Shown here: one piece after another, positions 2,026-18,469 of the stretch
Position numbering within the stretch: position 1 is the stretch's first letter
Layout: every line of letters starts with the position of its first letter
Source: Desulfatiglandales bacterium
GTDB lineage: Bacteria > Desulfobacterota > DSM-4660 > Desulfatiglandales > Desulfatiglandaceae
DNA: 64,000 bases
Direction of reading: 5' to 3'
NCBI GenBank assembly: GCA_963662465.1
Contig: OY759599.1
Span: 2,048,001-2,112,000, forward strand
Program-made: the position numbers and the translations under genes
The notes under the pieces: model-generated
What the model saw: the letters and a program-made list of their open reading frames with translations, nothing else
Databases searched by the model: none
What the model was told of the DNA's origin: nothing

Positions 2026-2993
2026 AAAAGCTTCATTACCAAGGCCGTCGCCATCAGATTAATCAACGCCGGCGGCAACAGCCATTTCCAATTAAGATTG
2101 AGCAACTGGTCAAAACGGAGACGGGGAAAGGTCCATCGAAACCACATCATAACCAGCAACAGCACATACATCTTGGCCAGGAACCACCAGAACCCCGGCA
2201 GAAAGGGTCCCTGCCAGCCCCCCAGAAAGAGTACCGTGCAAACACTGCACACCACAATCATATTGGTGTATTCCGCCAGGAAAAAGAGGCCGAACCCCAT
2301 ACCCGAGTATTCCGTATGGAAACCGGCAGTCAGCTCGCTTTCCGCCTCGGGCAGGTCAAAGGGGTTGCGGTTGGTCTCCGCTACCGCGCAGATAAAGAAG
2401 ATGAAAAAGGCCAGGGGCTGGCTCACGAAATTCCAGTGCCATGGGTACGGCCCCTGTCTCACCACGATTTCGGACAAGTTCAACGTGCCGTTGTTAAAGG
2501 TCACGGCCAGCACCGCCAGCAGCAGGGGGATTTCATACCCCACAGCCTGGGCCACGGAACGGGCCGCTCCCAGAATAGCCCATTTATTGTCGGAACCCCA
2601 TCCGGCCAGGCAGAGGGCCAGCACATTAACCCCCGAAAAGGCCAGGATCAACAAAAGTCCCAGGTTCACCTCGCATCCGGTGAGAGTCGGTCCGAAAGGG
2701 ATGGGGAGCAGCAACAGCAGCGTCGGCGCAAAGGCCGCAACGGGCGCCAGCCAGAACAGAAAAGAATCGGCGCCATCAGGTTTCAGGGGCTGTTTTGATA
2801 AAAGTTTAACAGCATCCGCAACGGTTTGGAGCATGCCGTGGGGTCCTACCTCAAAAGGCCCCGGTCGCCGGTGAACGTGCCCCGCCACCTTCCGTTCCAG
2901 GTAAACCAGGAAGATCACACTGGCAGCCACAAACAGGGCCGTGGCCACCACCGCAATGATCATCCGGATCAACTGAATCTCGTCAAAGGACAT
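2022..2993 (-). CDS. nuoH: NADH-quinone oxidoreductase subunit H
   Basis: ERKVAG..RRPGP, AETNRNPFDLPEAESELTAGFHTEYSG and PRLRFDQL motifs. Confidence 0.95.
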   Translation of the reverse strand: MSFDEIQLIRMIIAVVATALFVAASVIFLVYLERKVAGHVHRRPGPFEVGPHGMLQTVADAVKLLSKQPLKPDGADSFLFWLAPVAAFAPTLLLLLPIPFGPTLTGCEVNLGLLLILAFSGVNVLALCLAGWGSDNKWAILGAARSVAQAVGYEIPLLLAVLAVTFNNGTLNLSEIVVRQGPYPWHWNFVSQPLAFFIFFICAVAETNRNPFDLPEAESELTAGFHTEYSGMGFGLFFLAEYTNMIVVCSVCTVLFLGGWQGPFLPGFWWFLAKMYVLLLVMMWFRWTFPRLRFDQLLNLNWKWLLPPALINLMATALVMKLF

Positions 2994-3017
2994 GTTGTGT
3001 AAATTACCCTTTCCCCA

Positions 3018-3800
3018 TCAACACTGATCTAAATCGGCTAATTTGGCCTCAAGGCTTTTCATGGGTTTAATGGTTTGTGGTTGATAAATCATATAACTTT
3101 GAACCGGATATCTTGTTCCTTTCTCCTGGGTTTTTTTCAAGCCGTCCAAGAGCAATTCACAATCGCTTGCCGGAAATGTTAGAAACATCTCGGACTCATC
3201 CGTGCCTGCCAGTATGCGCTCTCCCCGTCCGGGATGAACAAATGCAGGCTTACCGGTAAAATGTGGCTTTAAGGCCGAAAGACAGGAAATACCAAATCCC
3301 GTGGTCCTGGATTCAATGAGTTCTCCATGGTGATATAGGTATCCCGCAGCCAATCTGGCCATTTGGGCGGGTGTTCCATAGATCAGCACAATATCGGGAT
3401 CGACCGGCGCCATTTCAAGGGGGAAAAAAGCTGCACCGCCGATTTCCCCTGCAGGTATCAGACCCAGCCCTTTTGTTACCTTCTCCGCTGATTCAATACT
3501 GTCGAAGTAACCCATTTCTAAAAAGTATTCGGAAAGCGGTTTGCTGCCCTCCATTCGTTTAAGGCCCAGCGCCGCAAGACACGGCGTGCAGTTGATATCG
3601 TCCGCTACGGCGCCAAGAATTCGTCCCCAGCGTCTTGCCATCGTTATCCACTGGCAAAGAGAGATCTTAATGCCATACTTTGAGGGTCTGATTGCGCTCT
3701 CCGGAAGTTGGTTGCTATTTTTTACCAATTTCACTCCGAGAGGATAAGATTGCGGTCGAATCAGCTTCGTAATTTCTTCGGAAAAGGTTTCATAATTCAT
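3018..3800 (-). CDS. DUF169 family protein
   Basis: PLGVKL...SLCQWITMARRWG...DINCTP...PDIVLIYGTPAQMARL pattern. Confidence 0.75.
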   Translation of the reverse strand: MNYETFSEEITKLIRPQSYPLGVKLVKNSNQLPESAIRPSKYGIKISLCQWITMARRWGRILGAVADDINCTPCLAALGLKRMEGSKPLSEYFLEMGYFDSIESAEKVTKGLGLIPAGEIGGAAFFPLEMAPVDPDIVLIYGTPAQMARLAAGYLYHHGELIESRTTGFGISCLSALKPHFTGKPAFVHPGRGERILAGTDESEMFLTFPASDCELLLDGLKKTQEKGTRYPVQSYMIYQPQTIKPMKSLEAKLADLDQC

Positions 3801-3918
3801 TTCATTCCCCCCCTTTCAGATACTATCCCCAAACGATAAATTCACCATTGCCATGCACGGACTATGCTTTGAAATCCGTATGACTCATGGCGCCTGGTGT
3901 AGCATCGGGTTCGCATTT

Positions 3919-4182
3919 TTACGCTAATTTGTGAGCGTAGGCATAAATCCGAACTGCTGCTGTTAATTGGTGCTTCCAATCAGATCCTTGAGCTTTGAAC
4001 CAATCGAGAACCTCCGGCTCAATTTCCAACATAACTTTAACTTTCGGCTTTGGCATTCGCCATTTTGCCGTCACAAAAAAGTCATCCGTCAATGGAGGAC
4101 TGTCTGACGTGTCAATCATATCATCGGTCATTGCGTCAATACGCTCCAAATTCGTTTTTGTATAAGTCGAAAATTTTTGCAT
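3919..4182 (-). CDS. BrnA-family antitoxin (orphan)
   Basis: IDTSDSPPLTDDFF...KVKVMLEIEPEVLDWFKAQG.DW. No BrnT ORF upstream. Confidence 0.75.
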   Translation of the reverse strand: MQKFSTYTKTNLERIDAMTDDMIDTSDSPPLTDDFFVTAKWRMPKPKVKVMLEIEPEVLDWFKAQGSDWKHQLTAAVRIYAYAHKLA

Positions 4183-4452: not shown

Positions 4453-4749
4453 TTAGAAATCAATACTCTCAAAATGGTCGCATAGCGCTCCGAGTTCTCG
4501 CGCTTTTCGAGGAGATTTGGCATGATTGGATTCTGCCGCCATCCAACCGGCAAGATCGTTTATTTCATTTTGAGTCATGCGAATGGTATGAACCCCCTCT
4601 TTTCTAGACATCCGGGTTAAAGTTGTTTTTAATTGACCAAAAACAATAGCATTTTTTAAAATTAGGTCGCAGTCATAATCATCAAGTTCAACAGGATATT
4701 TTTCGATATTTTCAGACATAATAATTGCTTCCTTTACCCTTTCAGACAT
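4453..4749 (-). CDS. Hypothetical protein (start 4749 or 4719)
   Basis: 98-aa ORF co-oriented with its neighbours; helical DLAGWMAAESNHAK segment; function not recognised. Confidence 0.55.
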   Translation of the reverse strand: MSERVKEAIIMSENIEKYPVELDDYDCDLILKNAIVFGQLKTTLTRMSRKEGVHTIRMTQNEINDLAGWMAAESNHAKSPRKARELGALCDHFESIDF

Positions 4750-4771: not shown

Positions 4772-4799
4772 GTAGAGACAAGGCATGCCTTGTCTCTAC
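4772..4799. repeat. 28-bp perfect palindrome, GTAG-type REP-like element
   Basis: GTAGAGACAAGGCA|TGCCTTGTCTCTAC is exactly self-complementary. Confidence 0.8.
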
Positions 4800-4840: not shown

Positions 4841-5821
4841 TCAATGTTCACGTGGTCCAAGAAAGCGATCTCCATTAAAATGGATCATGTGATCCGGGTT
4901 GTCTGCAATCCAGACCTCTGTTTCCCACGCTATATCCGCCGCATTTCTACGAAATTCCGCTCGGCTCGGAAAAGCAGTTACATATACCCTGCCCACTTTA
5001 CAGGTTGCTAAGGCTTCTTCCAGCTCTACCCATCTTTTAGGGGATACTGGCCCATGACTTGTGACCGCCTCAATCAAAAACAACCAATTGCGTTTCTCAT
5101 CAAAAACCACAACGTCAGGCAGTTTGTCATGTGACATGGGCGGCACTCCGATAGACTCAAGAAACTCACTTTCCAAAATCATGAGTTTACCGCCTTCGTT
5201 TCGACTGCTGGCTGTATCTCCCATATAGAGAAGTCGACCGCCTTCTCCAATAAATCTGGAGCAAAATTCGTGGACGATATCCGCATGCAATTGATTATGT
5301 TTCCCGGGAGAAAGTAAAATTTTCTTCCCATCAGGTAATGTGATGGGGATCTTTTCTTTATCCAGTTTTTTTGCATAAAGATATTTTAGGGCGGTTGAAT
5401 TCTGTTTATACTCTTCAATCTTTCTCCTCCACTCCCCCGCTGGGTACTCTCTCAAAACAGTAAGAATTGACTCATTCAGTGAATAGTTATTATCCTTGCT
5501 ATTTGTGGGACGAGCAGGGTCATCCCGATTCCGATCTACAATTCGGGCTTGTTCAAATTGATGTAATGTCTGTCGGCGGATCGTTTCACGGCTGTTCGGT
5601 TTGTAATCCTGTTTGTAGTGTTTACGGATGAACTGCATGATATCGACTGTTGGGAGCAGTGGTGATGCTGCGTTGCCCCATGGACTTTCCGGTCGAATAT
5701 CCGCTAAAGCCAAAAATACCCATCCTGATCTGTCATTATGTTGTGCCTTTGGTAAACCAAGGGCTTTCAATATTTCCTTGGACTGTTTTAGCTTCTCCTC
5801 TCGCTGTTTTTTGGTGCTCAT
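4841..5821 (-). CDS. BsuBI/PstI-family type II restriction endonuclease
   Basis: [33 protein letters not shown]...[18 protein letters not shown] and [21 protein letters not shown] motifs. Confidence 0.92.
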
Positions 5822-7308
5822 TGCAGGTTCCGTATCGCCAGTGCGGATTGGACAATCTCATCTACTGACAATTGTTCATAGCCTTTTGCCCTCTGCACTT
5901 CCTTTCCTATTGATATAATCTGATCTCTCGTCGGTAATTTCAAAAGTCGTATTTCCGTGGCGTTCACTTGGGTATTTCCAGATATTGACCGGAAGTAACG
6001 ATCCATAAGCGTAGAATTAAACAACGCAGCCAACCCGAATGCTTCCGTAAGATTCATGTCTTCATCTTTTACGCCGATATAGTTCAAATGATTTTCCAGT
6101 CCAATCAGGTGATTTTTGAATTGTTCAGGGTCATGAATACCTGCGACGAGACGGCGCTTTTCATCTTTAGAACTGAACCGTTTTAGTATTACATAGACTT
6201 TATTGCTGCAAGTGTGTTTTTCGTGCCCTTCCTTCAAAATAAAGCGTGCGTCTTTCCAGTGTTTTCCGGTCCATTCGATGCGAAACGCCTTAACATTGTG
6301 CATTCGCAACAAAGGAATGCTATTCTTTTGGGCCTTTGTTGTAATAAATTCTCTGGTGCGAAACTCCACCACCGGGCCGGTGGAAATATAGTAATTATTT
6401 TCTTCAAAGCTGCCGGGCCAATCTTCAACCAACTTCAGAATATGGCCGTCTGCCGTACTTTCCGGAATCCGAATAATATTATGTCCATTGCTTCCATCAA
6501 TAATCAATTTTTGTGGATAGCGGACGACCTCAGATTCCGCCAAGTCTTCCGCACAAATGCTCGACCCTATTTCTATGGTAGGTTGCTGTTCGTTTTTTAC
6601 GAACTTACAAATAATGTTCTCCTGTAGTACCCCCATACTTTTGAAAAGCCGGTTTCTGGAGCGAAAGATATGAACCCGTTCCAAGCTCATCCGTGACTGG
6701 AGATAGCCGCGAAAGCCTTTGAAATAGAGGCCATTTGTAAAACTGCGCGGAACAATGGCAACCATTTGTCCTCCCGGCGCCAGGCATGACGAAACCACCG
6801 CCATAAAGGATGCGTAAATATTGGGATTTCCCTTGAACAGATCGGCGGTTGCGCCACTATATACGGAGTGCTTGGTGTTATACTTGAAATATGGCGGATT
6901 GATTATTGAAATATGAAAGTTAGGTTCATGTTTATCCGGCCTCGACAATATGAAATCCTCGTTATGAATTTCATATGAGAATTTTCCGCCCTTTTTAATA
7001 AATATTCCAGCCAAGCGATCCAGGTTTTTTTCGAGTGTCGACAGTTGTTTATCGATCTCGAAAAGAATTGCATGAACTCGACGGTTTCCCAGCTCCAAGC
7101 AGCGGCGAGCGGCGGATGTCGTAAGAATTCCTTCTCCGGCGCCGGCATCGAGAATCTTTACCAACTCAACGTTCCCAATGGAATCAAGCATTGATGCCAT
7201 ATAATCGGCTGTTTTGGACTCCGTAAAAAACTGTCCCAGCTCTTTGCTTTGGGATCTGGATTTGAGATCGAATAAGCTAAGTTGTTTTACGGCATTCATA
7301 TTCGGCAC
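5818..7308 (-). CDS. BsuBI/PstI-type N6-adenine DNA methyltransferase (cognate to the endonuclease)
   Basis: [31 protein letters not shown] and [14 protein letters not shown] motifs; 4-nt overlap with the endonuclease gene. Confidence 0.92.
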
Positions 7309-7358
7309 AATATCAATTTCCTATTTGTTTCATTCGGCTTTATGGAAGTTCAGCAGTT

Positions 7359-7451
7359 TCAAAAAATCTCTGAAGTCTTGGGGGTAAGTGGATCGTATCC
7401 ATAAAGCATCTGCCTCATCATTTCGACCGACGCGAGTTCCCTATCAAACAT
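7359..7451 (-). pseudogene. Probable truncated HEPN/HepT toxin remnant
   Basis: ATG overlaps the end of the MNT gene; reads MFDREL... and stops after 30 codons. HepT genes normally occupy this position. Confidence 0.4.
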
Positions 7452-7749
7452 AAATCGCCTCTATGGCGATACGCTTTTTTAGAAAGGTATTCATTTTCTC
7501 CCGGTAATGAACAATATCAACTTTTGTCTGGTAATCAACCTCAAGTTCTTCCTTTATATGTACCATATTAAAGAGATCCGGCTTGTTCATCTTTACGACA
7601 ATATCCACATCACTATCCGATCCGCACCTCCCTCTGACAAGAGAGCCGAAAACGCCTATAGAAGTAACTCCAAATTCTTTTTCAAATGCCGTTTTTCTTT
7701 TTTTGAGAACTTTAAGCACCTCATCCAGGCTCAAATCTTTCCTGTGCAT
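7444..7749 (-). CDS. Minimal nucleotidyltransferase (MNT) antitoxin
   Basis: IGVFGSLVRG...SDSDVDIVV...KVDIV motif; GGAGGGGG RBS before ATG 7749. Confidence 0.85.
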   Translation of the reverse strand: MHRKDLSLDEVLKVLKKRKTAFEKEFGVTSIGVFGSLVRGRCGSDSDVDIVVKMNKPDLFNMVHIKEELEVDYQTKVDIVHYREKMNTFLKKRIAIEAIYV

Positions 7750-7918
7750 ATTCCCCCCTCTTCTTTCCCTGATGAATATACCTACCAACGACATGCTTCA
7801 TCATTCTCACAACAATCAGAATTTCAATCCAATGAAATTATCAACGTTTTTTGTATTTTCGTTTATCAAAAAACTGTCCTATCGTTGAACGATTGCATAA
7901 GTACGATAATAGTGGGAC

Positions 7919-8029
7919 GATAAACGGCAGCACAAAGACTCGGGGGGGATGAAGGAACTTCCTGCCCCGATGCCTGTGCCAACGATGAGCTAACTTTTTT
8001 GCATGTCCCAGGCAACAGCAAGGTTATAA
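7919..8029 (-). other. Degenerate/truncated attC-like sites
   Basis: Minus strand: the stop of the 8024-8380 gene lies in TTATAAC, followed by a shortened arm and GTTAGCT. A second hairpin, GCACAGGCATCGGGG...CCCCGAGTCTTTGTGC, ends in GTTTATC. Confidence 0.4.
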
Positions 8030-8380
8030 TCTCTTTAATTGAACTGTAAAAAATCGAAAATTCTTATCTTTCATTTCATTGAAGTTTGCTTCTTCAACAG
8101 GTAATCCTTCTTTCCGTGCAAGCGGATAAAACTTTTTGTATGACTCCTCGTCAAACCCATAAGCTGCACCAAAATTGAGGCCTCTCAATATTTCCCCGAA
8201 TCTCGTCTTTTTTACGATATGTCTTTTTTGATCATCTGGATCAAATTCTTTAAGGAAAGCTTTCATAGCTCGAACAGATCCAGATATTACACATGCGTTG
8301 CCTCGATCTCCGGTACATACAACTTCAGTAGGAGATGCAAAAGCAAAATAACCAATTATCTTTCGACTACGATCAGCCAT
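8024..8380 (-). CDS. Hypothetical protein (gene cassette)
   Basis: 118-aa AT-rich ORF with AGAGGA RBS, bounded by attC-like sites. Confidence 0.75.
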   Translation of the reverse strand: MADRSRKIIGYFAFASPTEVVCTGDRGNACVISGSVRAMKAFLKEFDPDDQKRHIVKKTRFGEILRGLNFGAAYGFDEESYKKFYPLARKEGLPVEEANFNEMKDKNFRFFTVQLKRL

Positions 8381-8456
8381 ATGAATTTTCCTCTTTGTGG
8401 TTTTGCTTCCTTGAGACCCTCATCTTTCTTGCTTGTAGATGCTACTAATGGCCTAC

Positions 8457-8515
8457 GGTCAAAGTGCTAATCAGTCGCGCGGCTTTTTGCGTCGGCTGCA
8501 TTAGGCTTGTTGGGC
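8457..8515 (-). other. attC site (R' box degenerate)
   Basis: Minus strand: GCCCAAC AAGC CTAATGCAGCCG ACGCAAAAAGCCGCG CGACTGATTAG CAC TTTGACC. It overlaps the helicase stop; R' reads TTT instead of GTT. Confidence 0.7.
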
Positions 8516-11500
8516 CATTTCCTTTAAAAGTCTGATCCGATTATTCTTGGCTTTATACTTTTCAATAATCCCTTGTTCTTCCAGCGTATTGAGACTGCGC
8601 ATAACTCGGTGCTCAAAAACTTTACGAGGGTTTCCGCGTGTTAAAACCCCCACTTCCTTGAGAACACGAGATGCCACGGAATGCAGGGTGCAGGACTGGT
8701 TTGGGCATTTTGACAATGCATTGATAATGGCGTTCTGGATTTCCATTATGGTAACTTCTTCCACGCGATGACCTACGGACTCTACGTCATTTTCATCATT
8801 TTCGGGTGAATCATCGCTATGAGTGCGATCGTTGTCTTCTTCATCATCTAATTCCTCGAAAACCTGCCCATCCTCAGCATCTTGCCAGCCTTCGTTGCTC
8901 TCGGAGTGATGGTCTCCAAAGCATGATCCGGGGAAAATACCTCTTTCTTCAAGCATGAACCACAATTGTTGAAGCGCCCCATTTTTGTCTGTGTAAAAGG
9001 CCGACTCTCTCACACGGAAAAACTCCCATCCGCAACGTTCAAGTTGCCGTTGGCGTTGCATGTCCGCCTCGTAACGGTCGGCGCCGTGCCAATTATCTCC
9101 ATCGCACTCAACCGCCAGCCGCGCCTGTCCGCCCTCAACCACAAGATCAATTCGCTTTCCCGCAACTTCATGCTGGGCAAGCACAGTGAAATCTCTGCGA
9201 AGAAGTTCCAAGGCAACGTCAACCTCGAACCAACTCTCGAATTTGTCAGGGGGCTTTACAATGCCTCGATTGTCCTGCGTTGCTCGCCGCTCCAGTTCGG
9301 CCACCTCAATTCCAGCAATCTGTTGAGGCTTCGTGTTCTCGAAAAAATCAAGCAACTGTCGCCGAAGACACGAGACGCTAAGATCGTCACAGGTGACGGA
9401 ATGGAATAGAATCATCATGTCACGGGCGCGACTGGCCGCGACATTGAAGCGTCGCTCGTCCGCCGCCTTTGCGAGAGGCCCGATTCTTTCATTGCCGGCC
9501 GCGACGAGCGACAAAAACATGATGTCGCGTTCATCGCCTTGAAAACTGTAAGGGTTGCCGCAAATCAGGCGACGCCGTTCCATTTCCTCGGCCCCCAGTC
9601 GTTCGAGCAACTGATTCTCGATCAAAGCAGCTTGCGCTTCGCCTTGAAGCACCACCACCCCCATAGTCTTGCCATTGTACCGGCTGTCGCCGCACATTTC
9701 GGCGAACCTTTCGACGATGGCTTCGGCTTCCGGACGGTTGATTGTTCGGGTGTTTGAACCTTCACGATATCCACCGCTCACAAAAACATGTTCCAGCGGC
9801 GGCAGCCGGTCCGGGCCATACTGCCTCAAGGGAATGAGCGGCGTATCCGAATAGCAAAGGTCATTGCTGAAACGGATGATTTCCGGCATGCAGCGGAAGT
9901 GCTCACGCAGCGTGACGCGCCGCGTGCCGTAGCGAAGTTTCCCGTGATCGAACAAGCTGCTTTCAATATCGAATGACGACTTGAAGTGGAAATCGTAAAG
10001 GAACTCTTCCATCAGGCGGTGCACCGAATCGCGGGGCAAACCCACGGCATCAGGGCTGATCTGTTTGTCATCGCCAACGATCAATATCTTCTTTCCAAGA
10101 TAGAATAAGTGAAGAGCTTCGACGCCACATTGCGAAGCTTCGTCAATGATAATCACATCGAACATGCCGGGCGTGGGATACACCGTGTCCCAAATGCGAT
10201 GGAGTGGCATTACCCATGCCGGAACCGCTTCGCGGCACTCATTCAGATGTCCTTGAGCCTCGCGACGATGGTGCGGCGCGTGTTTACCAGTCCCCTTGCC
10301 AAGCCGCCGCATGGATTGCTGCCAGGCCTCCATGTGGCGGCGATGGTCTTCCTTGAGCCGTGAGAAACAGAAAGACCAGGCGTAAAGGGAAGCAAGTTTC
10401 GCGATAATGCCGTTTATCTCATCCTCGATTTGTTTGGCGCGCATGGCGAGCGCCGGAACGTCTTCCTGTCGAATGTAATCCTCAATCCAGTACCACGCCT
10501 GCGCCCAATGCCAAGCGTCGCCAATTCGCCGGACTCGTTCTTCCCAATATGGCTCGTTGCAGGTTTGTTCCAAGGACTTCGTGAACTTCGGAAGCAAGCG
10601 GCGCAGTTTCGAGAGATATTCGTCCACCTTCTGAAGGCGGTGACGCTGTTTCTCCAAATCCTGAATCGTATTCGCGCACAGAGCAAACTTATCCATGCCG
10701 CGGCTGCGAATGGCACGCAGCAAATCGTTTGTCACCGGATGTGCGCTGCCCATAGCGACCACGCGAGAAATCGGAACCTCAACGCTTTGGATTTCCTCGA
10801 CGGCAAGCCGCTTGCGGATACGGGCCAACGCAAGGAGGCATGAGGAGACAACCCTTTCAACCTGGGATTCGTCGGCCCATACGGGCTCACCCATGCCTGA
10901 ACATTGGTTTATCGCTTCTCGACATTTGGCAATGAGTTCTTCTAGGGCCAAGGCGTTTTCGAGCGCATCACGCAACGACTTGAGAGCTGTCAATTGGAGA
11001 GTGTACGGACCTTCAACCTTTTCACTTCGCCCTTTCCAGAAGCCCCACGCCTTTTCAAATTCAATGCGAACATGCACCGCATCCGAAAGATTTGAGAAAT
11101 GCTCGACAGTGGAACAGGGGCGTCCAGTGATTCGCACAGTCTTGATTACGTAAAGCCTTTCCTTCACCGGTTTGGGTCGAAATACCCCCCAACCCAGTTT
11201 CCCGCCCTTCTCCATGTACTCTTTCAGTTTGCGAGCATCTTCATACAACGACCTGATATCGGTAGTGTCCGGGAATTCAATTCGGGTCTCATCGGCGACC
11301 GCAACGAGTTCTTCAATTGATGCAATAACATCTCGCGTAACACGTAGAAATTCATGCCACAGGGACGAGTTGCCGCCCAAAATATCGCTCAAAACATCGT
11401 TCATCCATGCATGCGGCGTTGCGAGGAGTCTCCTGCGAGTGTCCCGAAAAGTTGAGAAAGCTTTATGGATCGCCTCGATGGCCGAAGGATTGTTTTTTAC

Positions 11501-13390
11501 CAAAACATCGGCAAACCGTTCATCGGCCCCGCGTGCCGAGTTTTGCTCATCTTCAGTCGCCCTTGTCTCATTCCTCACAAGGTTAGCAAAGCGCTCAGGG
11601 GATGGCAACGCTTCGGGCCATGCAAGGCCCAATTCCCGGCTTTTCTCTGGCGTGAATTGGCGCAAAACCACAAGAACGTTTCTCAAGTCGTTTTCGGAGA
11701 TCTGACACGTCTTGTCTAAAGGAACGGAATCCGTGAACCATTCGTAGTCGGATCGATCCCGGTTCACAGTTTCGGCGATTCTAGCCGCCGTCCCTCGATA
11801 GGCTCCCTCCGCAATGGACTGCGTATGCGTTTCGGACTCCCTGATGTCGCGAAGTCGCCGGTTGACCCTGGCCTTCTCCTCGCGGAGTTTCCGAAGGCGC
11901 TCTTCAAGTTCCCTGCGCTCACATTTGGCGCGATCTTCGTTCCACTCCTCATTCTTCCGGAGAATGCCGCCAACGCTGGCTTCGAGAGAGCGGCGTTCCT
12001 CAAGTCCACTGCCAAGTAGATTGATGCAAAGGGGGCGCAACTCATCAGGCACAAGCCCTTCAAGAACCTGAAGCGCACGCGGCGTTTTCGCCGTGATGAG
12101 TGTTCGCTGTCCCGTGGCAAGCAGATGGCAAATCAGATTGGCGATGGTATGAGATTTTCCGGTGCCCGGCGGCCCTTGCACAAGTACGCCGCTTGCCGTT
12201 CGAATCTTATCAACAATGCGGCGTTGCTCATCGTTCGATGGTTTGGGGAAGAAGACCTCACCATCGAATGCAGCGTTTGCCTCTTCCGGCCCATTTGGCG
12301 ATTCACGGCCATCCTTCGGGCGGATTTCCGCGAGGTCCGAGAATTCGCCGAGGATGTCTTCGCCGTGCTCAATCTGTTCCTTGATCCGTTTCAAGGTTTC
12401 GGTAAGACCTTTGGCGGAACGCTTTCGCAGAATCAAAGCCGGAGCATATTCCACGATGGGCTTCGCCGAAGCGCGGATGTTTTTCGCTTCCAGCGAATCG
12501 TCATAATCGCCTTGTGAGTTGATCGAATGCACCAGGGCCTGTAGGACGCCTTCGATACATCCTTTTTCCCACGGATCGTCTTCGGCTGCGGTCAGTGACA
12601 CCTTCGCGGTTTCCTCCACGTGCGCCGGTTGCTCCTCGATGTCCAACATGTCGAGTTCGGGCCGTAGTTTGGCACCTTCGGTGTGGGGCCGGACGGTGAA
12701 TTTGCCCAAACGGGCTTCAAACTCCAAGATTGCATCCGCAACAGCCAAATGACGCCTGATGCGCTGTCCGGTCTGCGTCTGCCAAGTTAGCAGGCCCAAA
12801 CCGAGTACGAGTTCGTATTCCTCGCCAAGACGAAGTTGCTCCTGATGAATGGCAAAGAGCGCGGAATAGACCTTATGGACTTTCTCCCACGCATTATGTT
12901 CCTCCGTCCAAAGAAACCATTTGCCTTCCACATACCGTTCCCATGTTTGCTGAATTTCAGGGTGATTCTTAAGGTGTTCGATGTTCTGGATGGTTTCCGA
13001 CTGGTCTGATCCCTCGCGCCAATCGGGATTCTGGATTTGACGAGTAATCTCAGAAAGAAGTTCAGGTAGGACATTCTTGTTTCGGAGTAGAGACCGATTC
13101 ACCCAATCTCTGCATTGAGTGGGCACAGCGGGTAGTTCGGGTTCTCGTCGGTTTTGCACTTCCAACCATACGTCCGATTCATATTCCTCATCGCGCCCCC
13201 ATGCCTGGGTGAAACACCCCTGTTCCCTTGGAATGGCTGAAAGCCACAGAACCTTCTCGTACTCGTCAATGCTGCGGATCAGTTTCGCACGCAGGGTCGC
13301 CAGCCGTAGAAAATAATCCACCAAGCGAACGGCTTTTTTTGCTTCAGAGTTGAGTGTCTGTGGTTCGTTCACAAGCTCACTTATATCCAT
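8501..13390 (-). CDS. Superfamily-1 (DNA2/NAM7-Upf1-like) helicase with long helical insertion and C-terminal Vsr/DUF559-like nuclease; candidate anti-phage protein
   Basis: VQGPPGTGKS, IIDEASQ, VGDDKQISP, LREHFRC, FQGDERD and RRFNVAASRARD motifs; nuclease ESWFEVDV...RIDLVV...LAVECDGDNWH...DMQRQRQLERCGW. Confidence 0.9.
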   Translation of the reverse strand: MDISELVNEPQTLNSEAKKAVRLVDYFLRLATLRAKLIRSIDEYEKVLWLSAIPREQGCFTQAWGRDEEYESDVWLEVQNRREPELPAVPTQCRDWVNRSLLRNKNVLPELLSEITRQIQNPDWREGSDQSETIQNIEHLKNHPEIQQTWERYVEGKWFLWTEEHNAWEKVHKVYSALFAIHQEQLRLGEEYELVLGLGLLTWQTQTGQRIRRHLAVADAILEFEARLGKFTVRPHTEGAKLRPELDMLDIEEQPAHVEETAKVSLTAAEDDPWEKGCIEGVLQALVHSINSQGDYDDSLEAKNIRASAKPIVEYAPALILRKRSAKGLTETLKRIKEQIEHGEDILGEFSDLAEIRPKDGRESPNGPEEANAAFDGEVFFPKPSNDEQRRIVDKIRTASGVLVQGPPGTGKSHTIANLICHLLATGQRTLITAKTPRALQVLEGLVPDELRPLCINLLGSGLEERRSLEASVGGILRKNEEWNEDRAKCERRELEERLRKLREEKARVNRRLRDIRESETHTQSIAEGAYRGTAARIAETVNRDRSDYEWFTDSVPLDKTCQISENDLRNVLVVLRQFTPEKSRELGLAWPEALPSPERFANLVRNETRATEDEQNSARGADERFADVLVKNNPSAIEAIHKAFSTFRDTRRRLLATPHAWMNDVLSDILGGNSSLWHEFLRVTRDVIASIEELVAVADETRIEFPDTTDIRSLYEDARKLKEYMEKGGKLGWGVFRPKPVKERLYVIKTVRITGRPCSTVEHFSNLSDAVHVRIEFEKAWGFWKGRSEKVEGPYTLQLTALKSLRDALENALALEELIAKCREAINQCSGMGEPVWADESQVERVVSSCLLALARIRKRLAVEEIQSVEVPISRVVAMGSAHPVTNDLLRAIRSRGMDKFALCANTIQDLEKQRHRLQKVDEYLSKLRRLLPKFTKSLEQTCNEPYWEERVRRIGDAWHWAQAWYWIEDYIRQEDVPALAMRAKQIEDEINGIIAKLASLYAWSFCFSRLKEDHRRHMEAWQQSMRRLGKGTGKHAPHHRREAQGHLNECREAVPAWVMPLHRIWDTVYPTPGMFDVIIIDEASQCGVEALHLFYLGKKILIVGDDKQISPDAVGLPRDSVHRLMEEFLYDFHFKSSFDIESSLFDHGKLRYGTRRVTLREHFRCMPEIIRFSNDLCYSDTPLIPLRQYGPDRLPPLEHVFVSGGYREGSNTRTINRPEAEAIVERFAEMCGDSRYNGKTMGVVVLQGEAQAALIENQLLERLGAEEMERRRLICGNPYSFQGDERDIMFLSLVAAGNERIGPLAKAADERRFNVAASRARDMMILFHSVTCDDLSVSCLRRQLLDFFENTKPQQIAGIEVAELERRATQDNRGIVKPPDKFESWFEVDVALELLRRDFTVLAQHEVAGKRIDLVVEGGQARLAVECDGDNWHGADRYEADMQRQRQLERCGWEFFRVRESAFYTDKNGALQQLWFMLEERGIFPGSCFGDHHSESNEGWQDAEDGQVFEELDDEEDNDRTHSDDSPENDENDVESVGHRVEEVTIMEIQNAIINALSKCPNQSCTLHSVASRVLKEVGVLTRGNPRKVFEHRVMRSLNTLEEQGIIEKYKAKNNRIRLLKEMAQQA

Positions 13391-13400
13391 AGATTTCTTG

Positions 13401-13496
13401 ACCTAACGACAAACTTAGCAGAAGACAGGGCGATACAGACTTTCAGTCCGGCACGGCAGCCCTACCCTGGTTTTCTGCTACAGTGACAGGTTGGGC
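13401..13496 (-). other. attC site
   Basis: Minus strand: GCCCAAC...TAGCAGAAAACCAGGG...CCCTGTCTTCTGCTA...GTTAGGT (96 bp). The helicase ATG follows 10 nt after the R' box. Confidence 0.8.
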
Positions 13497-13507
13497 ATAA
13501 AAATATA

Positions 13508-13545
13508 TTGACATCCCACCTTTAATATGTACAATATTCTGTACA
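13508..13545 (+). promoter_or_regulatory. sigma70 promoter and YefM-YoeB operator
   Basis: TTGACA-16nt-TACAAT, with two TGTACA cores (13528 and 13540) 12 bp apart, as in the E. coli yefM-yoeB operator. Confidence 0.8.
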
Positions 13546-13557
13546 GGAGGTGCTAAA

Positions 13558-13809
13558 ATGGAAGCCATAACCTATACGGCAGCAAGGCAAAACCTTGCAA
13601 AAACAATGGAAAAAGTTTGCAGAGACCGTGCGCCGATGATTGTAACGAAAAAATCCTCGGGTTCTGTAGTTATTATGTCTCTTGAGGACTTTGAAGCCCT
13701 TGAAGAGACAGCCTATCTGCTACGGTCACCGAAAAACACAAAGCGGCTGATTGAATCTATTGCTCAACTCGAAAATGGCAAAGGGGCTGAAAAGGAGCTT
13801 GTAGAGTGA
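13558..13809 (+). CDS. yefM: YefM antitoxin
   Basis: ITYTAARQNLAKTM...VIMSLEDFEALEETAYLLRSPKN..RLIESI. Confidence 0.93.
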   Translation: MEAITYTAARQNLAKTMEKVCRDRAPMIVTKKSSGSVVIMSLEDFEALEETAYLLRSPKNTKRLIESIAQLENGKGAEKELVE

Positions 13810-14060
13810 AGCTCATTTTTTCTGACCACGCTTGGGACGATTACATCTTTTGGCAAAAAACTGACAAAAAGATTCTTCGTCGCATCAACACCCTCATTAA
13901 GGAAACCAAACGAAATCCTTTTGAGGGTGTGGGAAAGCCTGAGCCGCTAAAACATGCACTTTCCGGATATTGGTCCAGGCGAATAACAGACGAACATAGA
14001 TTTATCTATAAAGTCTCCGAAGATGCAATTCATATTGCCCAACTGAGATACCACTACTGA
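13806..14060 (+). CDS. yoeB: YoeB/Txe toxin
   Basis: AWDDYIFWQ...PFEGVGKPEPLKH.LSGYWSRRITDEHR...RYHY. Confidence 0.95.
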   Translation: MKLIFSDHAWDDYIFWQKTDKKILRRINTLIKETKRNPFEGVGKPEPLKHALSGYWSRRITDEHRFIYKVSEDAIHIAQLRYHY

Positions 14061-14071
14061 TCCCCGTTTAG

Positions 14072-14133
14072 CCCCAACGCCGCTACTGTGGGGTGCGCGG
14101 TCCTTGCGCATCCCTACCAGCAGTTTGTTAGGC
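14072..14133 (-). other. attC site
   Basis: Minus strand: GCCTAAC AAA CTGCTGGTAGGGATGCGC AAGGACC GCGCACCCCACAGTAG CGGC GTTGGGG (62 bp). It is an imperfect hairpin with bulged bases, 6 nt after the upstream gene's stop. Confidence 0.85.
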
Positions 14134-14139
14134 GAACAA

Positions 14140-14674
14140 TTACCGATACTCGTCACCAGCCTGATTGCACAATTCAATACAGCAATCAAGCCATGATTGG
14201 TACCAGTACCAAACACCTTGAACTTCAACCCCGAACCCCTTTGCCGGATTCTTGGCATCCTCGGCCTGCCACATGCGCAGGTGCTCTGCGAGAACGCGAA
14301 ATTTCTTGAAACCCGCTTTGTTAACTGCCTCAACGACATCAGTTGCGCGGTATTTCGGGCGTTCAGTTTCTTTCTTAACCCAGAATTCCTTATCAATGGT
14401 TTTTGCTAAATCAGACTTGGGGTCAATGAACTCGATCACCTTGTCAGCCTGCCCTGGCTTATTTTAAACTTATCTGGTAGACTCTTCAGCTCATTAAGGA
14501 ACTCTTGCATGCTGTCCCCAGTTAGATCCCCAAGGTAAGCATGGATAAAAACGGTCAACTGCTTCTTTTCCTCTTTGGATAAGCTTTTCGATAAGATTGA
14601 AGAGACTCCTCCTCGTCAGCGTTTGTCTTGAGGAAAGGATGAGACTCAAAACCGAGTTGAATGTAGAATGCCAC
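14140..14674 (-). pseudogene. Decayed chimeric first cassette: fragments of one gene's N-terminus joined to a DUF3644-like C-terminus
   Basis: AGGAG RBS plus GTG 14674 gives VAFYIQLGFESHPFLKTNADEEE, then frame breaks. The final segment, NKPGQADKVIEFIDPKS...WYWYQSW, stops at 14140. Confidence 0.55.
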
Positions 14675-14705
14675 GTGGAATTCTCCTATTATTTTTTCTT
14701 AATGC

Positions 14706-14745
14706 GCCCAACAAGATAATATGCTGTTTCCGAATAACCCATACC
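14706..14745 (-). other. attI-like site heading the cassette array
   Basis: Minus strand: GGGTTATTCGGAAACAGCATATTATCTT|GTTGGGC. This is a GTTRRRY box with no preceding attC hairpin, directly before the first cassette's RBS. Confidence 0.5.
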
Positions 14746-14907
14746 ACCAATTTCAATTTGCTTGCAAAAGTTCAAATTTTGCCGGTTTGCTAACGGTATA
14801 ACGTGATAAAGGAGGTGATATCTGGTTTCCGGATAAGCTGCCATACTGAGAATCCCTTCAGAAATAGCACATGCCTTTCACTTCCCAAGTTCCTCACCTT
14901 CTCCCTT

Positions 14908-16017
14908 TTACCGATCAATCTCAGGGATCACCAGATCCAGACTGCCCAGAATAGACACCGCATCCTGCAAAAGATGCCCTTTCGCCAGTTCCCCGAAAAG
15001 GCTCAGGTTGGAGAAACCGGGCGAGCGCAATTTCACGCGGTAGGGGAATTTGTCCCCGTTTGAAATGAGATAGACGCCGATCTTCCCCCGTGCCCCTTCC
15101 ACGGCGAAATAGGCTTCCCCCCTGGGAGGTTTCCAGCGGGGTTTGGGGGCTTTTTTGACGATGTAATCCCCTTCCGGAATCCGGTTTACGGCCTGTTCGA
15201 TGATGTTGAGACTTTCCGCCAGTTCCGCCATGCGAACCCGGTATCGGCCCATGGCATCACCCTTTTCATCAACGGGTATTCGATAATCGAACCGGTCGTA
15301 TATGGAATAGGGTTCGGATTTTCGAATATCATAGGGGCGGTTGGAGCCTCTGATAACGGGTCCTGTGGCCCCGTACCTTTGACACATCTCAAGGGAAAGA
15401 ACCCCTACCCCCTCGCAGCGCTTACGGAAAATAATGTTGTCCGTCACCAGATCCCGGTACATGGGGAGCCGGTCTCTCATATATTTCACAAAGGCAAGGG
15501 TATCTTTCAGAAATGAATCGGTAACGTCCGTTGCCACCCCGCCGGGGCGGAAAAAACTGTAGGTAAGGCGCGATCCCGAAATGGGTTGAAGGAGATCCAG
15601 AATTTTTTCCCGATCCTCAAAGGCGTACATGATGGGCGTAAAAGCCCCCAGATCCAGGATATAGGCCCCGAACCAGACCAGGTGAGAGGATATACGGTTC
15701 AACTCTCCGGTGATGACCCGAATAAATTCCGCCCGTTCAGGAACCTCAATGCCGGCCAGACGTTCCAGTGCCCCCACATAGGCCCAGTTCCATCCCAAAG
15801 GGTTCAGGTAGTCCACGCGGCCCATGTTTGGCATGTATTGCACACAGGTTCTGATCTCCGCCATTTTTTCGTGCATACGGTGGAGATATCCAATGACGGG
15901 CGTTGCCCTGACGATATATTCGCCGTCCAGGACCAGCACGACCCGAAGCACCCCGTGGGTGGACGGGTGCTGAGGCCCCATGTTAATGATGAGAGTTTGT
16001 TCGTCGCCTTCGGTCAT
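14908..16017 (-). CDS. nuoD: NADH-quinone oxidoreductase subunit D
   Basis: NMGPQHPSTHGVLR, GYLHR..EK and GSLDLVIPEIDR; no NiFe CxxC motifs. Confidence 0.95.
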   Translation of the reverse strand: MTEGDEQTLIINMGPQHPSTHGVLRVVLVLDGEYIVRATPVIGYLHRMHEKMAEIRTCVQYMPNMGRVDYLNPLGWNWAYVGALERLAGIEVPERAEFIRVITGELNRISSHLVWFGAYILDLGAFTPIMYAFEDREKILDLLQPISGSRLTYSFFRPGGVATDVTDSFLKDTLAFVKYMRDRLPMYRDLVTDNIIFRKRCEGVGVLSLEMCQRYGATGPVIRGSNRPYDIRKSEPYSIYDRFDYRIPVDEKGDAMGRYRVRMAELAESLNIIEQAVNRIPEGDYIVKKAPKPRWKPPRGEAYFAVEGARGKIGVYLISNGDKFPYRVKLRSPGFSNLSLFGELAKGHLLQDAVSILGSLDLVIPEIDR

Positions 16018-16610
16018 TGCCCCTCGGGTTTCGATTCTTCGGTTGGCAAATTGGCTTCTTCAAAAAACAGAAAATCAGGGTCCCTTTCCACGATTTCGCC
16101 CGGATCCAGCAGATTTTTTAACGGTGCCCGGCCTTTATCCTCCTTTATAAGGGGATGATCCGTCATGTCTTCGGGCAACAACAGAGGTTTTGGGTTCGGG
16201 TGACCGGTAAAGTAAATACCAAAAAAATCCATTACCTCCCGTTCGTGCCATAAAGCGCCGCTGTAAACAGGGCTGATGGTCGGAATTTGAGGGTCATCGT
16301 GAGGAACGATTACATAAAGAGCGGTCCTGTCCGAGCCGGAATATACGCTTAAATGGTACACCGCCACAAAGCCATTTGCGCTGTCCAGGCCCGAAATATC
16401 TTCCAGGAAAAAACCGGCTTGAAACAACCGCTGAGCCGCATCCACCAGCGTGTCGGGGGAAAGAAAAAGACCCCAGGTGATCCCCGTCTTTTCAAAAACG
16501 TGTCGGCACTTGCAAAGGGTATTGAGGCCTTCCATCCACGCAGGCGTCATGTGCCTTTGTCCTCGGTTTGGATTCCGGTTATTCTCATTTATGCGTTTAG
16601 ACTCATTCAA
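16014..16610 (-). CDS. nuoC: NADH-quinone oxidoreductase subunit C (start may be 16550)
   Basis: PTISPVYSGALWHEREVMDFFGIYFTGHPNPKPLLLP...HPL.K. Confidence 0.9.
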   Translation of the reverse strand: MNESKRINENNRNPNRGQRHMTPAWMEGLNTLCKCRHVFEKTGITWGLFLSPDTLVDAAQRLFQAGFFLEDISGLDSANGFVAVYHLSVYSGSDRTALYVIVPHDDPQIPTISPVYSGALWHEREVMDFFGIYFTGHPNPKPLLLPEDMTDHPLIKEDKGRAPLKNLLDPGEIVERDPDFLFFEEANLPTEESKPEGQ

Positions 16611-17019
16611 TGGCCATAGCCTTGAGGCCCCTTTTTGAAAGATCTCTGTCGAAGGAGTATATCCCTTTCAGATTTTTCTTTTTTGACAACGCCAATAAAT
16701 AGGCATCAACAAGGTCGATTTTTTCGGTTTGGAGTATTTCAAAACAGGATAGAATAAGGGGCTTATCATGCATGATGATACCCATAAACGATACGATGTC
16801 CGACAGCTTTTCGGCAGCCTCATTTTGGGGCACTCGATAAAATTTCGTGAGTACAAAAAATGCTTCGAACAACACAAGTTCACACAACGCTACGTTTCGC
16901 TCTCCACTTTCCACTTTTGGAAAAAAAGTAAAAACCCCTCTAAATTTCATGTGAACTTTTTCTGGATCTTCCACGAGATAACGGATGATGACATTTGTGT
17001 CAATTAGACTAATTTCCAC
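16603..17019 (-). CDS. PIN-domain VapC toxin
   Basis: LIDTNVIIRYL...VLFE...DLVDAYL...IYSFDRDL; GTG start overlaps the antitoxin end. Confidence 0.88.
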   Translation of the reverse strand: MEISLIDTNVIIRYLVEDPEKVHMKFRGVFTFFPKVESGERNVALCELVLFEAFFVLTKFYRVPQNEAAEKLSDIVSFMGIIMHDKPLILSCFEILQTEKIDLVDAYLLALSKKKNLKGIYSFDRDLSKRGLKAMAIE

Positions 17020-17269
17020 GGACAATTCCTTCCGCAAGTGCCTCTTTCATTTCTTGCTTTGAGGGGAACCGCCGTTTTTGTTTGTATTTTGAAAGAGAAC
17101 CAGCCAGTTTAGCGGATTTCATTCCGCCTGCCTTTTTCAGCGTTAGGCTTTTTTCACGTCTATCCACGATAACATCCAGCATATCACCAATCTCAATATC
17201 GAACTCTTTTCGGACGTCAACCGGGATCACCACTTGACCCTTATCAAATATCTCAATCAGCATCTTCAT
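17009..17269 (-). CDS. AbrB/MazE-family antitoxin
   Basis: KGQVVIPVDVRKEFDIEIGDML motif. Confidence 0.88.
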   Translation of the reverse strand: MKMLIEIFDKGQVVIPVDVRKEFDIEIGDMLDVIVDRREKSLTLKKAGGMKSAKLAGSLSKYKQKRRFPSKQEMKEALAEGIVRGN

Positions 17270-17305
17270 TACCCCCCTCGACCTATTTTGCTTGCTCCAG
17301 TACGA

Positions 17306-17333
17306 AATATACCGAATCCTCTGAAGTTGTCAA
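17306..17333 (-). promoter_or_regulatory. Internal sigma70 promoter for abrB-vapC, pointing into nuoCD
   Basis: Minus strand TTGACA-16nt-TATATT between the nuoB stop and abrB. Confidence 0.6.
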
Positions 17334-17369
17334 AAAAGAACTGCCCCAAATTGCTATCCAATCCTGTTT

Positions 17370-17900
17370 TTAAGCGACTTTGCTGTCCCGCGGTTCCGGC
17401 CACCAGCGCCGGCCGGTGATTTTTTTCTGTAGTTCAAACAGACCTTCCAGGAGTGCTTCGGGTCGGGCCGGGCATCCGGGGACATAAACGTCCACGGGGA
17501 TGATTTTGTCCACGCCCTCCACCACCGAATATTGCCCCGGAAATTTGAAGGGTCCCCCGGATATAGCGCAGTTTCCCATGGCAATCACCCATTTGGGCGC
17601 AGGCATCTGTTCGTAAAGGCGCAAAATGGCGGGGGCCAGTTTGTGGGTGACGGTGCCGGCCACAATCATCAAATCCGACTGCCTGGGGGATGCACGAAAT
17701 ACCTCGGCCCCGAATCGTGCCAGATCATAGCGCGCCATGCCCGCGGCCATCATCTCGATGGCGCAACAGGCCAGCCCGAAAGTCATGGGCCACAGGGACA
17801 TGGACCTGCAAACATCCTTCAGCTTCTCCGCCAGCTCAAGACGAACAATGGGAGGGGTCCAGGGTTCGGGGCTTTGCGTCACGAAATTTTCCGGGGCCAC
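17370..17900 (-). CDS. nuoB: NADH-quinone oxidoreductase subunit B
   Basis: [26 protein letters not shown] and [13 protein letters not shown]. Confidence 0.95.
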
Positions 17901-18256
17901 TTAAAGACTCCTTTTGCATGAAAAAACAGAACCGCCAGGGCCAATACCAAGAGAAAAACGAATACCTTGAAAAATGCGGCAATACCAATGGTCTGAGAAT
18001 AGAAAAGGGCCACGGGAAAGAGGTAGAGAACATCCACCTCAAAGGCCAGAAAGATGAGGGCATAAATGGCGTAATTGATATGAAAACGGATTCGGGCGTC
18101 GGCAAGGGAGCGCATGCCGCATTCGTAGGCCATGCCCATTTGTTTATCCCTTGCTCGGGGCGAGAGAAAAAAAGCGCCGGTCAGGGCGCCCGCGGCCATG
18201 AGAAAACCCACTAAGAAAAAGAGGAGGATCGATATGTGTAACCAGTTAAAGACCAT
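17879..18256 (-). CDS. nuoA: NADH-quinone oxidoreductase subunit A
   Basis: AYECG...[16 protein letters not shown]...KGVFKW; the start MVFNW at 18256 gives the usual length of about 125 aa. Confidence 0.92.
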
Positions 18257-18469
18257 TGAGAACCCAAGTTTCTTATTCTGTTGACCGGGATGGAATCGAT
18301 ACGCGCTATCATACCAAGAAATGCGATGGTTGCAAGAAATAATTTGCGCTTGCTTTAAGGGTTGACAAAAAGCGGCCTTTTCGTGATATCCTCTATTTAA
18401 CATCCTGAAAAACCAATAAGGCTTCGAAATAAAATCCGTTTACCATTGTTAAAGCGTAAGGGAACCGCC

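Follow-up and report, generated by a model that had tools for sequence, protein, structure and literature searches.

An integrase-less attC cassette cluster between nuoD and nuoH of a Desulfatiglandales bacterium

Cassettes outside integrons and the nuoD-nuoH locus

Clusters of attC sites without an integron-integrase (CALINs) have been defined by Cury et al. (2016, PMC4889954), in an account that also discusses their origin by insertion at secondary sites. Cassettes inserted outside integrons at 5'-GWT-3' sites (attG) have been shown experimentally to be expressed near a resident promoter and to be re-excisable (Loot et al., preprint, 10.1101/2022.09.11.507474), and toxin-antitoxin (TA) cassettes with their own promoter are reported to be enriched in chromosomal integrons (Richard et al. 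2024, PMC13108822). Here we describe a locus related to all of these. In a Desulfatiglandales bacterium (GCA_963662465.1; closed 8.16-Mb genome, here G000), the nuo operon for NADH dehydrogenase (complex I), which is of the 11-subunit type and lies on the minus strand, is broken between nuoD and nuoH by about 11.9 kb, which are rich in genes for toxin-antitoxin systems and, probably, for phage defence. The window analysed comprises 64,000 nt (contig OY759599.1, 2,048,001-2,112,000 of the forward strand; G000:C1:2,048,001-2,112,000), and coordinates are window positions unless stated otherwise. We interpret the insert as an integrase-less attC cluster, that is a CALIN, probably filled by an integron-integrase (IntI) acting in trans, whose cassettes would be read through from the nuo promoter, and put the probability of this reading at about 0.78. 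As a CALIN it is a known kind of element; it stands out in being lodged within a respiratory operon and in the turnover that it shows from species to species of the genus.

In nuo orientation, the insert holds small open reading frames (ORFs) together with c99, an inverted yefM-yoeB pair, the helicase-nuclease gene Hel1629, c118, an MNT-type nucleotidyltransferase (NTase), a type II methylase (MTase), a BsuBI/PstI endonuclease (REase), c98, a BrnA antitoxin and a DUF169 gene. We recognise four attC sites among them, attC-1 to attC-4 (Table 1).

The locus shares with the CALINs of Cury et al. (PMC4889954) two or more attC sites on a single strand that enclose cassette ORFs, the lack of intI or an intI pseudogene nearby, and complete integrons elsewhere in the replicon, as in about half of the CALINs of that account. 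attC-1 and attC-2 are separated by 575 nt on one strand, and neither intI nor an intI pseudogene was found within 10 kb. It is not a complete integron, having no intI and the 3' end of nuoD as its array head. It differs from described CALINs in lying inside a conserved respiratory operon in sense orientation, in having attC-less modules mixed in and in having one site that is probably inactive. Its other spacings, 4,885 nt (4.9 kb) between attC-2 and attC-3 and 4,541 nt (4.5 kb) between attC-3 and attC-4, also exceed the 4-kb clustering default of IntegronFinder, which would probably call a two-site CALIN plus single sites.

Like the attG cassettes and single attC sites without an integron-integrase (SALINs) of Loot et al. 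(10.1101/2022.09.11.507474), the insert lies outside an integron platform and is oriented for a resident promoter; it holds several cassettes, however, not one, and its founding junction is not preserved, so that an attG origin is something we can only infer. The yefM-yoeB pair, with its own promoter and an attC in a cassette array, resembles the TA cassettes of sedentary chromosomal integrons (PMC13108822), whereas the array here is small and integrase-less, and killing upon cassette loss would be a presumed role. Defence islands and variable hot spots likewise carry species-specific restriction-modification (R-M) systems, helicase-nucleases, MNT-type NTases and TA pairs between conserved flanks, but the flanks here are two genes of one operon, and at least part of the turnover bears a signature of site-specific attC recombination. 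A full-text literature search returned no paper tying attC sites or integrons to an NADH dehydrogenase operon or to Desulfobacteraceae, which is no proof of absence in print.

attC sites, cassette junctions and integrases

The attC sites were sought with three covariance models, R1, R2 and R3, none containing window sequence, which served as surrogates for IntegronFinder's own attC model; the window was searched on both strands with filters off. The genome contains an 87-nt repeat family of classical attC layout, which adjoins IntI genes and also forms several integrase-less clusters (56 copies in 17 clusters genome-wide by nhmmer, with zero copies in or near the window). R1 was built from an alignment (A1) of 46 copies of this family, in which the L helix is 97% paired with compensatory changes and none of 500 shuffles equalled the observed covariation. 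True attC sites are expected on the strand opposite intI. On 80 IntI loci of other genomes, R1 gave 39 matches, all 39 upstream of intI and 37 of them on the opposite strand; R1 is therefore not merely family-specific and works as a general attC detector beyond its own family. These 39 foreign sites were used to build R2, which has textbook consensus cores (gcCUAAC and GUUAGgc) and recovers the resident 87-nt family at 50-64 bits. R3 was built from 15 copies of a second resident attC family of about 62 nt, all outside the window, which score 27-42 bits under R2 in the forward and 7-17 bits in the reverse direction. A MAFFT alignment of the 62-nt family (A3) had its R boxes out of register and was discarded for a model-guided one.

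Scans for bare sequence patterns were also tried. A strict genome scan for RYYYAAC-N-GTTRRRY gave 130 candidates, mostly noise, and did not recover the window sites; a looser regional pattern scan was noisy. In a scan for R-box/L-box stems, the AAC core gave 1602 raw sites against 874-2357 for five decoy cores, and 121 against 67-159 after filtering. Because the AAC core was not enriched over the decoys, such heuristics were dropped in favour of the covariance models.

The top two window matches of R1 and the top three of both R2 and R3 all fall in the nuoD-nuoH gap on the minus strand; outside the gap, the best window matches of R1 and R3 had E-values of 0.08 and 0.27. Across the models, the window sites resemble intI-linked and foreign attC sites in sequence and structure with E-values from 1e-8 to 5e-3. 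attC-2 is matched by R1 (29.4 bits, E 2e-6), R2 (41.9 bits, E 1e-7) and R3 (27.1 bits, E 7e-5), attC-1 by R2 (22.2 bits, E 0.005) and R3 (25.4 bits, E 2e-4), and attC-4 by R1 (29.5 bits; E 2e-6 in the window, 2.4e-4 genome-wide) and, more faintly, R2 (14.1 bits, E 0.4). attC-3, best matched by R3, scores 11.1 bits under R2 (E 2; 8450-8515). The minus-strand attC-type sites that a preliminary description of this DNA had placed at 14072-14133, 13401-13496 and 8457-8515 are thus all recovered. A further, "degenerate" element that it had placed at 7919-8029 did not stand: no model matched there on the minus strand at E<=10, and the fold of 7960-8032 has a z-score of +0.5 relative to shuffles. With attC-4, which that description had overlooked, the array reaches past the interval 7919-14745 to which it had been assigned.

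In the model alignments all four sites fit the attC architecture, with an unpaired spacer, an L''/L' stem with extra L'' bases (two in attC-1) and a loop. attC-1, attC-2 and attC-4 have R'' (...AAC) and R' (GTT...) cores able to pair; attC-3, with R' reading TTTGACC, departs from this. The minimum-energy fold of the attC-2 bottom strand shows an R stem with 5-nt spacers, then an L stem with a bulge, and a variable loop, and the folds of the other three give the bulged L stem only. Over 51 nt, attC-3 shares 96% identity with a copy that lies in a cassette cluster, at genome position 6,380,916; it ends in ...GATTAGC-ACT-TTG where canonical copies of the 62-nt family end in ...GATTAGC-GGC-GTT; to judge from these letters, it is probably inactive.

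The attC-3 core also has a presence of its own in public sequencing runs. In runs X1, X3 and X4, 10-21 contigs per end match the core (8466-8511) alone and then diverge on both sides, and local depth there is 4-80 times that of neighbouring bins. The 62-nt family therefore seems to be abundant in many sequence contexts in these samples.

Gene ends abut the R'' boxes where attC sites are present. The c99 stop lies at 14140 and R'' at 14133, the BrnA stop at 3919 and R'' at 3915; the Hel1629 stop codon falls within the R''-L'' part of attC-3, and its start lies 10 nt past the attC-2 R' box. To this extent the proposal that the intergenic spaces are attC elements, with genes ending at R'', was right; it did not extend to the spaces after c118, the NTase, MTase-REase and c98, where the covariance models found no attC.

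The best sign of recombination at an R' box comes from a comparison with the sister species G010, which is 91-98% identical to G000 over common parts and lacks three G000 segments. One of these is the 5.6-kb block 7786-13404, comprising Hel1629 and c118. In G010, attC-2, whose orthologous site there scores 39.1 bits, runs directly into sequence of the 7783-7793 type (...TTTGTC-GTT-GGTAT...; letters ...TTTGTCGTTGGTAT...). In G000 the left junction of the block reads ...TTTGTC-GTT-AGGTC... at 13405 (...TTTGTCGTTAGGTC...) and the right junction ...GCATGTC-GTT-GGTAGG... at 7793-7783 (...GCATGTCGTTGGTAGG...). Only the 7 nt TGTCGTT are common to all three junctions, and both block ends lie within them at two R' boxes. 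This pattern agrees with prediction: it is precisely what would remain after IntI had crossed over at the G/TT step of R', and by its ends the indel is cassette-precise. The second segment, 14067-14800 (c99), has GTT at its right end in both genomes, followed by a 9-nt difference. With the model matches, the homology to intI-linked attC families and this indel, the idea of an integrase-less cassette cluster co-oriented with nuo, put forward in the preliminary description, is upheld.

The gap as a whole is hypervariable. Thirty relatives were searched; seven have a nuoD orthologue and five have nuoD and nuoH on one contig. nuoD itself is 90-97% identical in six species of the genus, while the spacing to nuoH amounts to 11.9 kb in G000, about 5.1 kb in G010, 4.9 kb in G005, 0.86 kb in G003 and G006, and 49 bp in G013, a member of another genus; on a contig of public run X4, nuoH and nuoD are 22 nt apart, and in G007 and G008 they lie on different contigs. 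The gap contains a VapBC pair in G003, a small ORF and MscL in G006, IS1595 and IS4 transposases in G007, and DUF169, HTH-Fic, DUF433-DUF5615, a c98 homologue and Phd-PIN in G005. attC sites co-oriented with nuo are found there in four species including G000: besides that of G010, G007 has one of 34.7 bits and G005 one of 18.2 bits under R2 and 20.2 bits under R3 (L015 4874-4949, ahead of its c98 homologue). The models detected no attC in the gap of G003 or G006.

That the 64 kb lack a tyrosine recombinase, as had been noted from the sequence, is borne out by a genome search with TIGR02249, in which none of 68 matches at E<=0.001, weak general ones included, falls in 2,048,001-2,112,000; the nearest matches listed are more than 400 kb away, and neither an intI pseudogene nor an attI-like sequence was found at the locus. 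The six-frame search gave five IntI matches, of 454, 446, 444, 373 and 281 bits, above the NCBIfam cut-off for TIGR02249 (265 bits). Four of the five are full length and without stops. The window lies over 1 Mb from every one of them, each is accompanied by large attC arrays, and the two attC families of these intI-linked arrays include attC-3 and attC-4. The suggestion that an IntI elsewhere in the genome could act in trans fits these data.

The resident arrays have features of their own. Full-length intI genes adjoin two cassette arrays, each some 55-60 kb long (3,293,405-3,353,257 and 6,734,667-6,789,627 in genome coordinates; L009, L010, L023-L027), that use the 87-nt attC family; in one intI-linked array a 510-aa ORF with structured flanks lies 3' of an attC (L009 9789-11321). 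Integrase-less clusters are seen, for example, at 277,704-294,230, 441,430-451,050, 2,364,202-2,371,488, 3,201,500-3,221,240 and 5,898,713-5,902,845. Just upstream of an intI gene, at 4,413,960-4,423,744 (L011), there are seven identical tandem units of 1,609 bp that each close with a 131-nt GTCCAAC...GTTGGAC hairpin.

Genes and surroundings of the insert

Table 1. Features of the nuo region and its insert, listed in nuo orientation (window positions)
Feature	Coordinates	Strand	Remarks
nuoA	17879-18403	-	
nuoB	17370-17900	-	
nuoC	16014-16610	-	
nuoD, 49-kDa subunit	14908-16017	-	Last nuo gene ahead of insert; Pfam PF00346, E 4e-89
Spacer 3' of nuoD	14801-14907	-	Contains start of small ORF c51a; kept in G000, G010 and G008 (blastn and flank alignment)
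c99, 99-aa ORF of first cassette	14140-14439	-	PADLOC PDLC04948, E 7e-32
attC-1	14071-14133	-	R'' GCCTAAC (14133-14127), R' GTTGGGG (14078-14072)
yefM-yoeB toxin-antitoxin pair	13558-14060	+	Inverted in its cassette; Pfam PF02604 E 8e-22, PF06769 E 1e-40
attC-2	13400-13496	-	R'' GCCCAAC (13496-13490), R' GTTAGGT (13407-13401)
Hel1629, 1629-aa SF1 helicase	8501-13390	-	C-terminal MTES_1575/DUF559 nuclease; Pfam PF18741, PF13087, PF13086
attC-3	8456-8515	-	Resident 62-nt attC family member; R3 40.3 bits, E 1e-8
c118, 118-aa ORF	8024-8380	-	Within G000-specific 5.6-kb block; own attC not found
R'-type junction TGTC G/TT GGTA	7783-7793	-	3' end of 5.6-kb block; L'-like GATGAAGC and spacer ATGTC ahead of it
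MNT-type nucleotidyltransferase (antitoxin-like)	7444-7794	-	Likely start ATG 7749; Pfam PF01909 E 4e-13; PADLOC PDC-S09
Type II methylase	5818-7308	-	PADLOC MTase_II E 7e-113
BsuBI/PstI-type endonuclease	4841-5821	-	PADLOC REase_II E 6e-104
c98, 98-aa ORF	4453-4749	-	73%-identical G005 homologue directly 3' of an attC (tblastn)
BrnA-type antitoxin gene	3919-4182	-	Pfam PF14384 E 7e-7
attC-4	3827-3915	-	Diverged 87-nt attC family member; R'' TGCGAAC (3915-3909), R' GTTTGGG (3834-3828)
DUF169 gene	3018-3800	-	Ends 24 nt ahead of nuoH; Pfam PF02596 E 6e-46
nuoH	2022-2993	-	First nuo gene past insert; Pfam PF00146 E 6e-116

Downstream of nuoH follow nuoI, J, K and L. In public run X1, which may be the sample of origin, contigs match without mismatches over 2344-4048 (nuoH, DUF169, attC-4 and BrnA), 5472-8275, 8246-13586 and 14009-16266 (from attC-1 to nuoD). 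As far as these data reach, then, the junctions did not arise in assembly, and the misassembly at the nuoD or nuoH junction against which the preliminary description had cautioned is not indicated.

Of the 325 profile positions of the candidate defence family PDC-S19, c99 matches only 229-323, the C-terminal third, and it comes after two 51-codon ORFs (14140-14844); a longer gene that was truncated or frameshifted may be present in the first cassette. The yefM-yoeB pair, 98% identical in G010, has a sigma-70-like predicted promoter at 13508-13535 (11 of 12 consensus positions) over a TGTACA-N6-TGTACA palindrome, which points head-on against nuo. Hel1629 matches PDC-S37 in PADLOC (E 1e-55), with MkoA/MkoC/Hhe-like (Mokosh/Hhe-like) matches as well, making it a candidate defence gene; a search of the 30 relatives at E<=1e-50 did not find it in any of them. 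c118 matched neither Pfam nor PADLOC.

Where a HEPN toxin partner of the NTase would be expected (7309-7443), there is only a short ORF of about 30 codons, and the NTase/HEPN pair appears to be a remnant; in G010 most of the NTase gene is deleted. The R-M pair at 4841-7308 (Pfam PF07669, PF06616 and PF17728) is 93% identical in G010, and no attC was found after it. A perfect 28-nt palindrome (GTAGAGACAAGGCATGCCTTGTCTCTAC) at 4772-4799, 3' of the endonuclease gene, has dozens of copies in the genome and looks like a repetitive extragenic palindromic (REP)-type element; a near-identical copy is found in G008 upstream of nuoH (L021), beside a 114-aa ORF with no Pfam match. No intact BrnT was recognised beside BrnA. 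The DUF169 gene is also present in G010, and G005 has a distant DUF169 directly after nuoD.

The operon carries a second insertion, a MazE/PIN (VapBC-type) pair at 16603-17269 between nuoB and nuoC. In its flanks (16540-17400), about 25 nt of the overlap between the nuoB end and the nuoC start are directly duplicated, and there is no attC. In G010 the pair has undergone a partial deletion, in G003, G005, G006, G007 and G008 it is missing, and contigs of X1 and X5 connect 16539 to 17397 without it.

Origin of the array and its meaning

A number of observations weigh against the insert being a CALIN filled in trans. Only part of the 11.9 kb is demonstrably cassette-structured: attC sites stand at four of about ten insert gene junctions, the R-M pair, the NTase remnant, c98 and c118 have none of their own, and the VapBC modules of G003 and G010 have none detectable. 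The third segment absent from G010 (7366-7696, inside the NTase gene) has ends without attC, and where VapBC replaces c98-BrnA-attC-4 in G010, the left end is the REase stop codon, not an attC core. As to the sites themselves, the significance of attC-1 is only moderate, the R' box of attC-3 (CTTTGACC) has T (8463) in place of the conserved crossover G, the E-values are rough, having been obtained with shortened calibration, the folding energies of the four sites are unremarkable relative to shuffles (z -1.0 to -1.6), and the bare RYYYAAC...hairpin...GTT pattern is not enriched genome-wide. The insert proteins, searched with tblastn, have no paralogue inside the genome's integron arrays.

The founding junction is not preserved. 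Homology between G000 and G010 3' of nuoD breaks at ...TTTATCAC/GTTATACC in the flank alignment (the slash marks the break), and the break after nuoD is ...TTTTTCAA/GTTAGCC in G008 and ...TTTATCAA/GTAAGG in G010, giving in summary CAC/GTT in G000, CAA/GTT in G008 and CAA/GTA in G010. The GTA of G010 is a further point against the reading, as is the failure to find an empty site with the same flanks, those of G013 and the X4 contig having different ones. Because G010 reads GTA and no same-flank empty site was found, the founding event is not assignable to attG.

A rival reading takes the gap as a generic variable hot spot, a defence or TA island filled mainly by homologous exchange through the nuo flanks, transposition or illegitimate recombination, with the attC cassettes as passengers. 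In its favour, most modules are without attC, among them the single modules of G003 and G006; the G007 gap holds transposases, a REP-like palindrome lies at 4772-4799, and the flanks of the second TA insertion, the one separating nuoB from nuoC, carry a direct duplication and no attC. Against this, all four attC sites lie on the nuo strand, the top matches of all three models fall in the gap, and attC sites recur in the same gap in four species. The 5.6-kb indel, moreover, ends in TGTCGTT on both sides, and 7 nt are too short for homologous recombination. We therefore consider a generic hot spot unlikely as the main explanation.

More improbable still is that the array is a fragment of a large chromosomal integron moved into nuo by rearrangement instead of having been built in place. 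Rearrangement is listed as one origin of CALINs (PMC4889954), and the membership of attC-3 and attC-4 in the two resident families of intI-linked arrays would agree with it. Yet the flanks are contiguous halves of one operon, the relatives differ stepwise, module by module, and the insert has neither an intI pseudogene, an attI-like sequence nor, in G000, an insertion sequence at either edge, nor any protein with a paralogue in the arrays. That the hairpins are chance matches, terminators or REP elements unrelated to integrons we regard as highly improbable: the bare hairpin is no commoner than decoys and the folding z-scores are weak, but three independent covariance models reach E-values between 1e-8 and 2e-4 and tell the strands apart correctly, attC-3 has its near-identical copy in a cassette cluster, and the junction shows the G/TT signature. 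The decoy and folding controls count against a naive reading of the pattern; attC support rests on the covariance models, family homology and the comparative junction.

We thus favour a CALIN that is, as far as its sequence can tell, partly decayed and mixed with attC-less modules such as the R-M system and the NTase remnant. Its history may have begun when a first cassette was set into the short nuoD-nuoH spacer, either by IntI acting on a secondary (attG-like) site or in some other way; further cassettes would then have followed by attC x attC recombination at the G/TT of R' boxes already in place. IntI, bound to the folded bottom strand (the plus strand of the window), would place cassettes in trans from a pool also feeding the genome's own integrons; two of the four sites belong to resident attC families. 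The array would then have decayed, with attC-3 losing its crossover G, several modules losing their attC or never having had one, and deletions striking the NTase and HEPN genes, while attC-less modules would have come in by other routes. The promoter-bearing yefM-yoeB cassette likely stabilises the array.

By GC skew, the origin is at about 5.5 Mb and the terminus at about 1.75 Mb, so that the minus strand of the window is the leading strand and the attC bottom strands lie on the leading-strand template. This is reportedly the low-excision orientation usual for chromosomal integrons. It is the lagging-strand template that is described as favouring attC folding (Richard et al. 2024, PMC13108822).

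The sense-oriented cassette genes, as well as the downstream genes nuoH-N, would depend on transcription crossing the array. Expression of the cassettes by nuo read-through is plausible given their sense orientation and the lack of a strong terminator-like site on the minus strand of 14140-14907, in a scan that was at chance level (30 found, 22 expected).

CALINs are common, and their origin and the expression of their cassettes are still debated. The present locus, in sense orientation within an operon, offers a natural example compatible with the recently demonstrated entry of cassettes outside integrons beside a resident promoter, and it turns over between species; one gain or loss shows the G/TT signature while the integrases lie more than 1 Mb away. 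It raises the question of whether nuoH-N can still be co-expressed with 12 kb of foreign DNA, a head-on toxin-antitoxin promoter among it, lying before them, and the system could serve for tests of the trans-mobilisation of CALIN cassettes and of polar effects on a respiratory operon. More tentatively, the nuoD-nuoH spacer of the genus might be an integrase-less satellite platform, a fixed secondary site with repeated sense capture of cassettes from a trans-acting IntI and with the nuo promoter in the role of the cassette promoter (Pc). If this doubtful possibility were true, expression of the cassettes and of complex I would be coupled, and the TA cassettes would lock the array in place.

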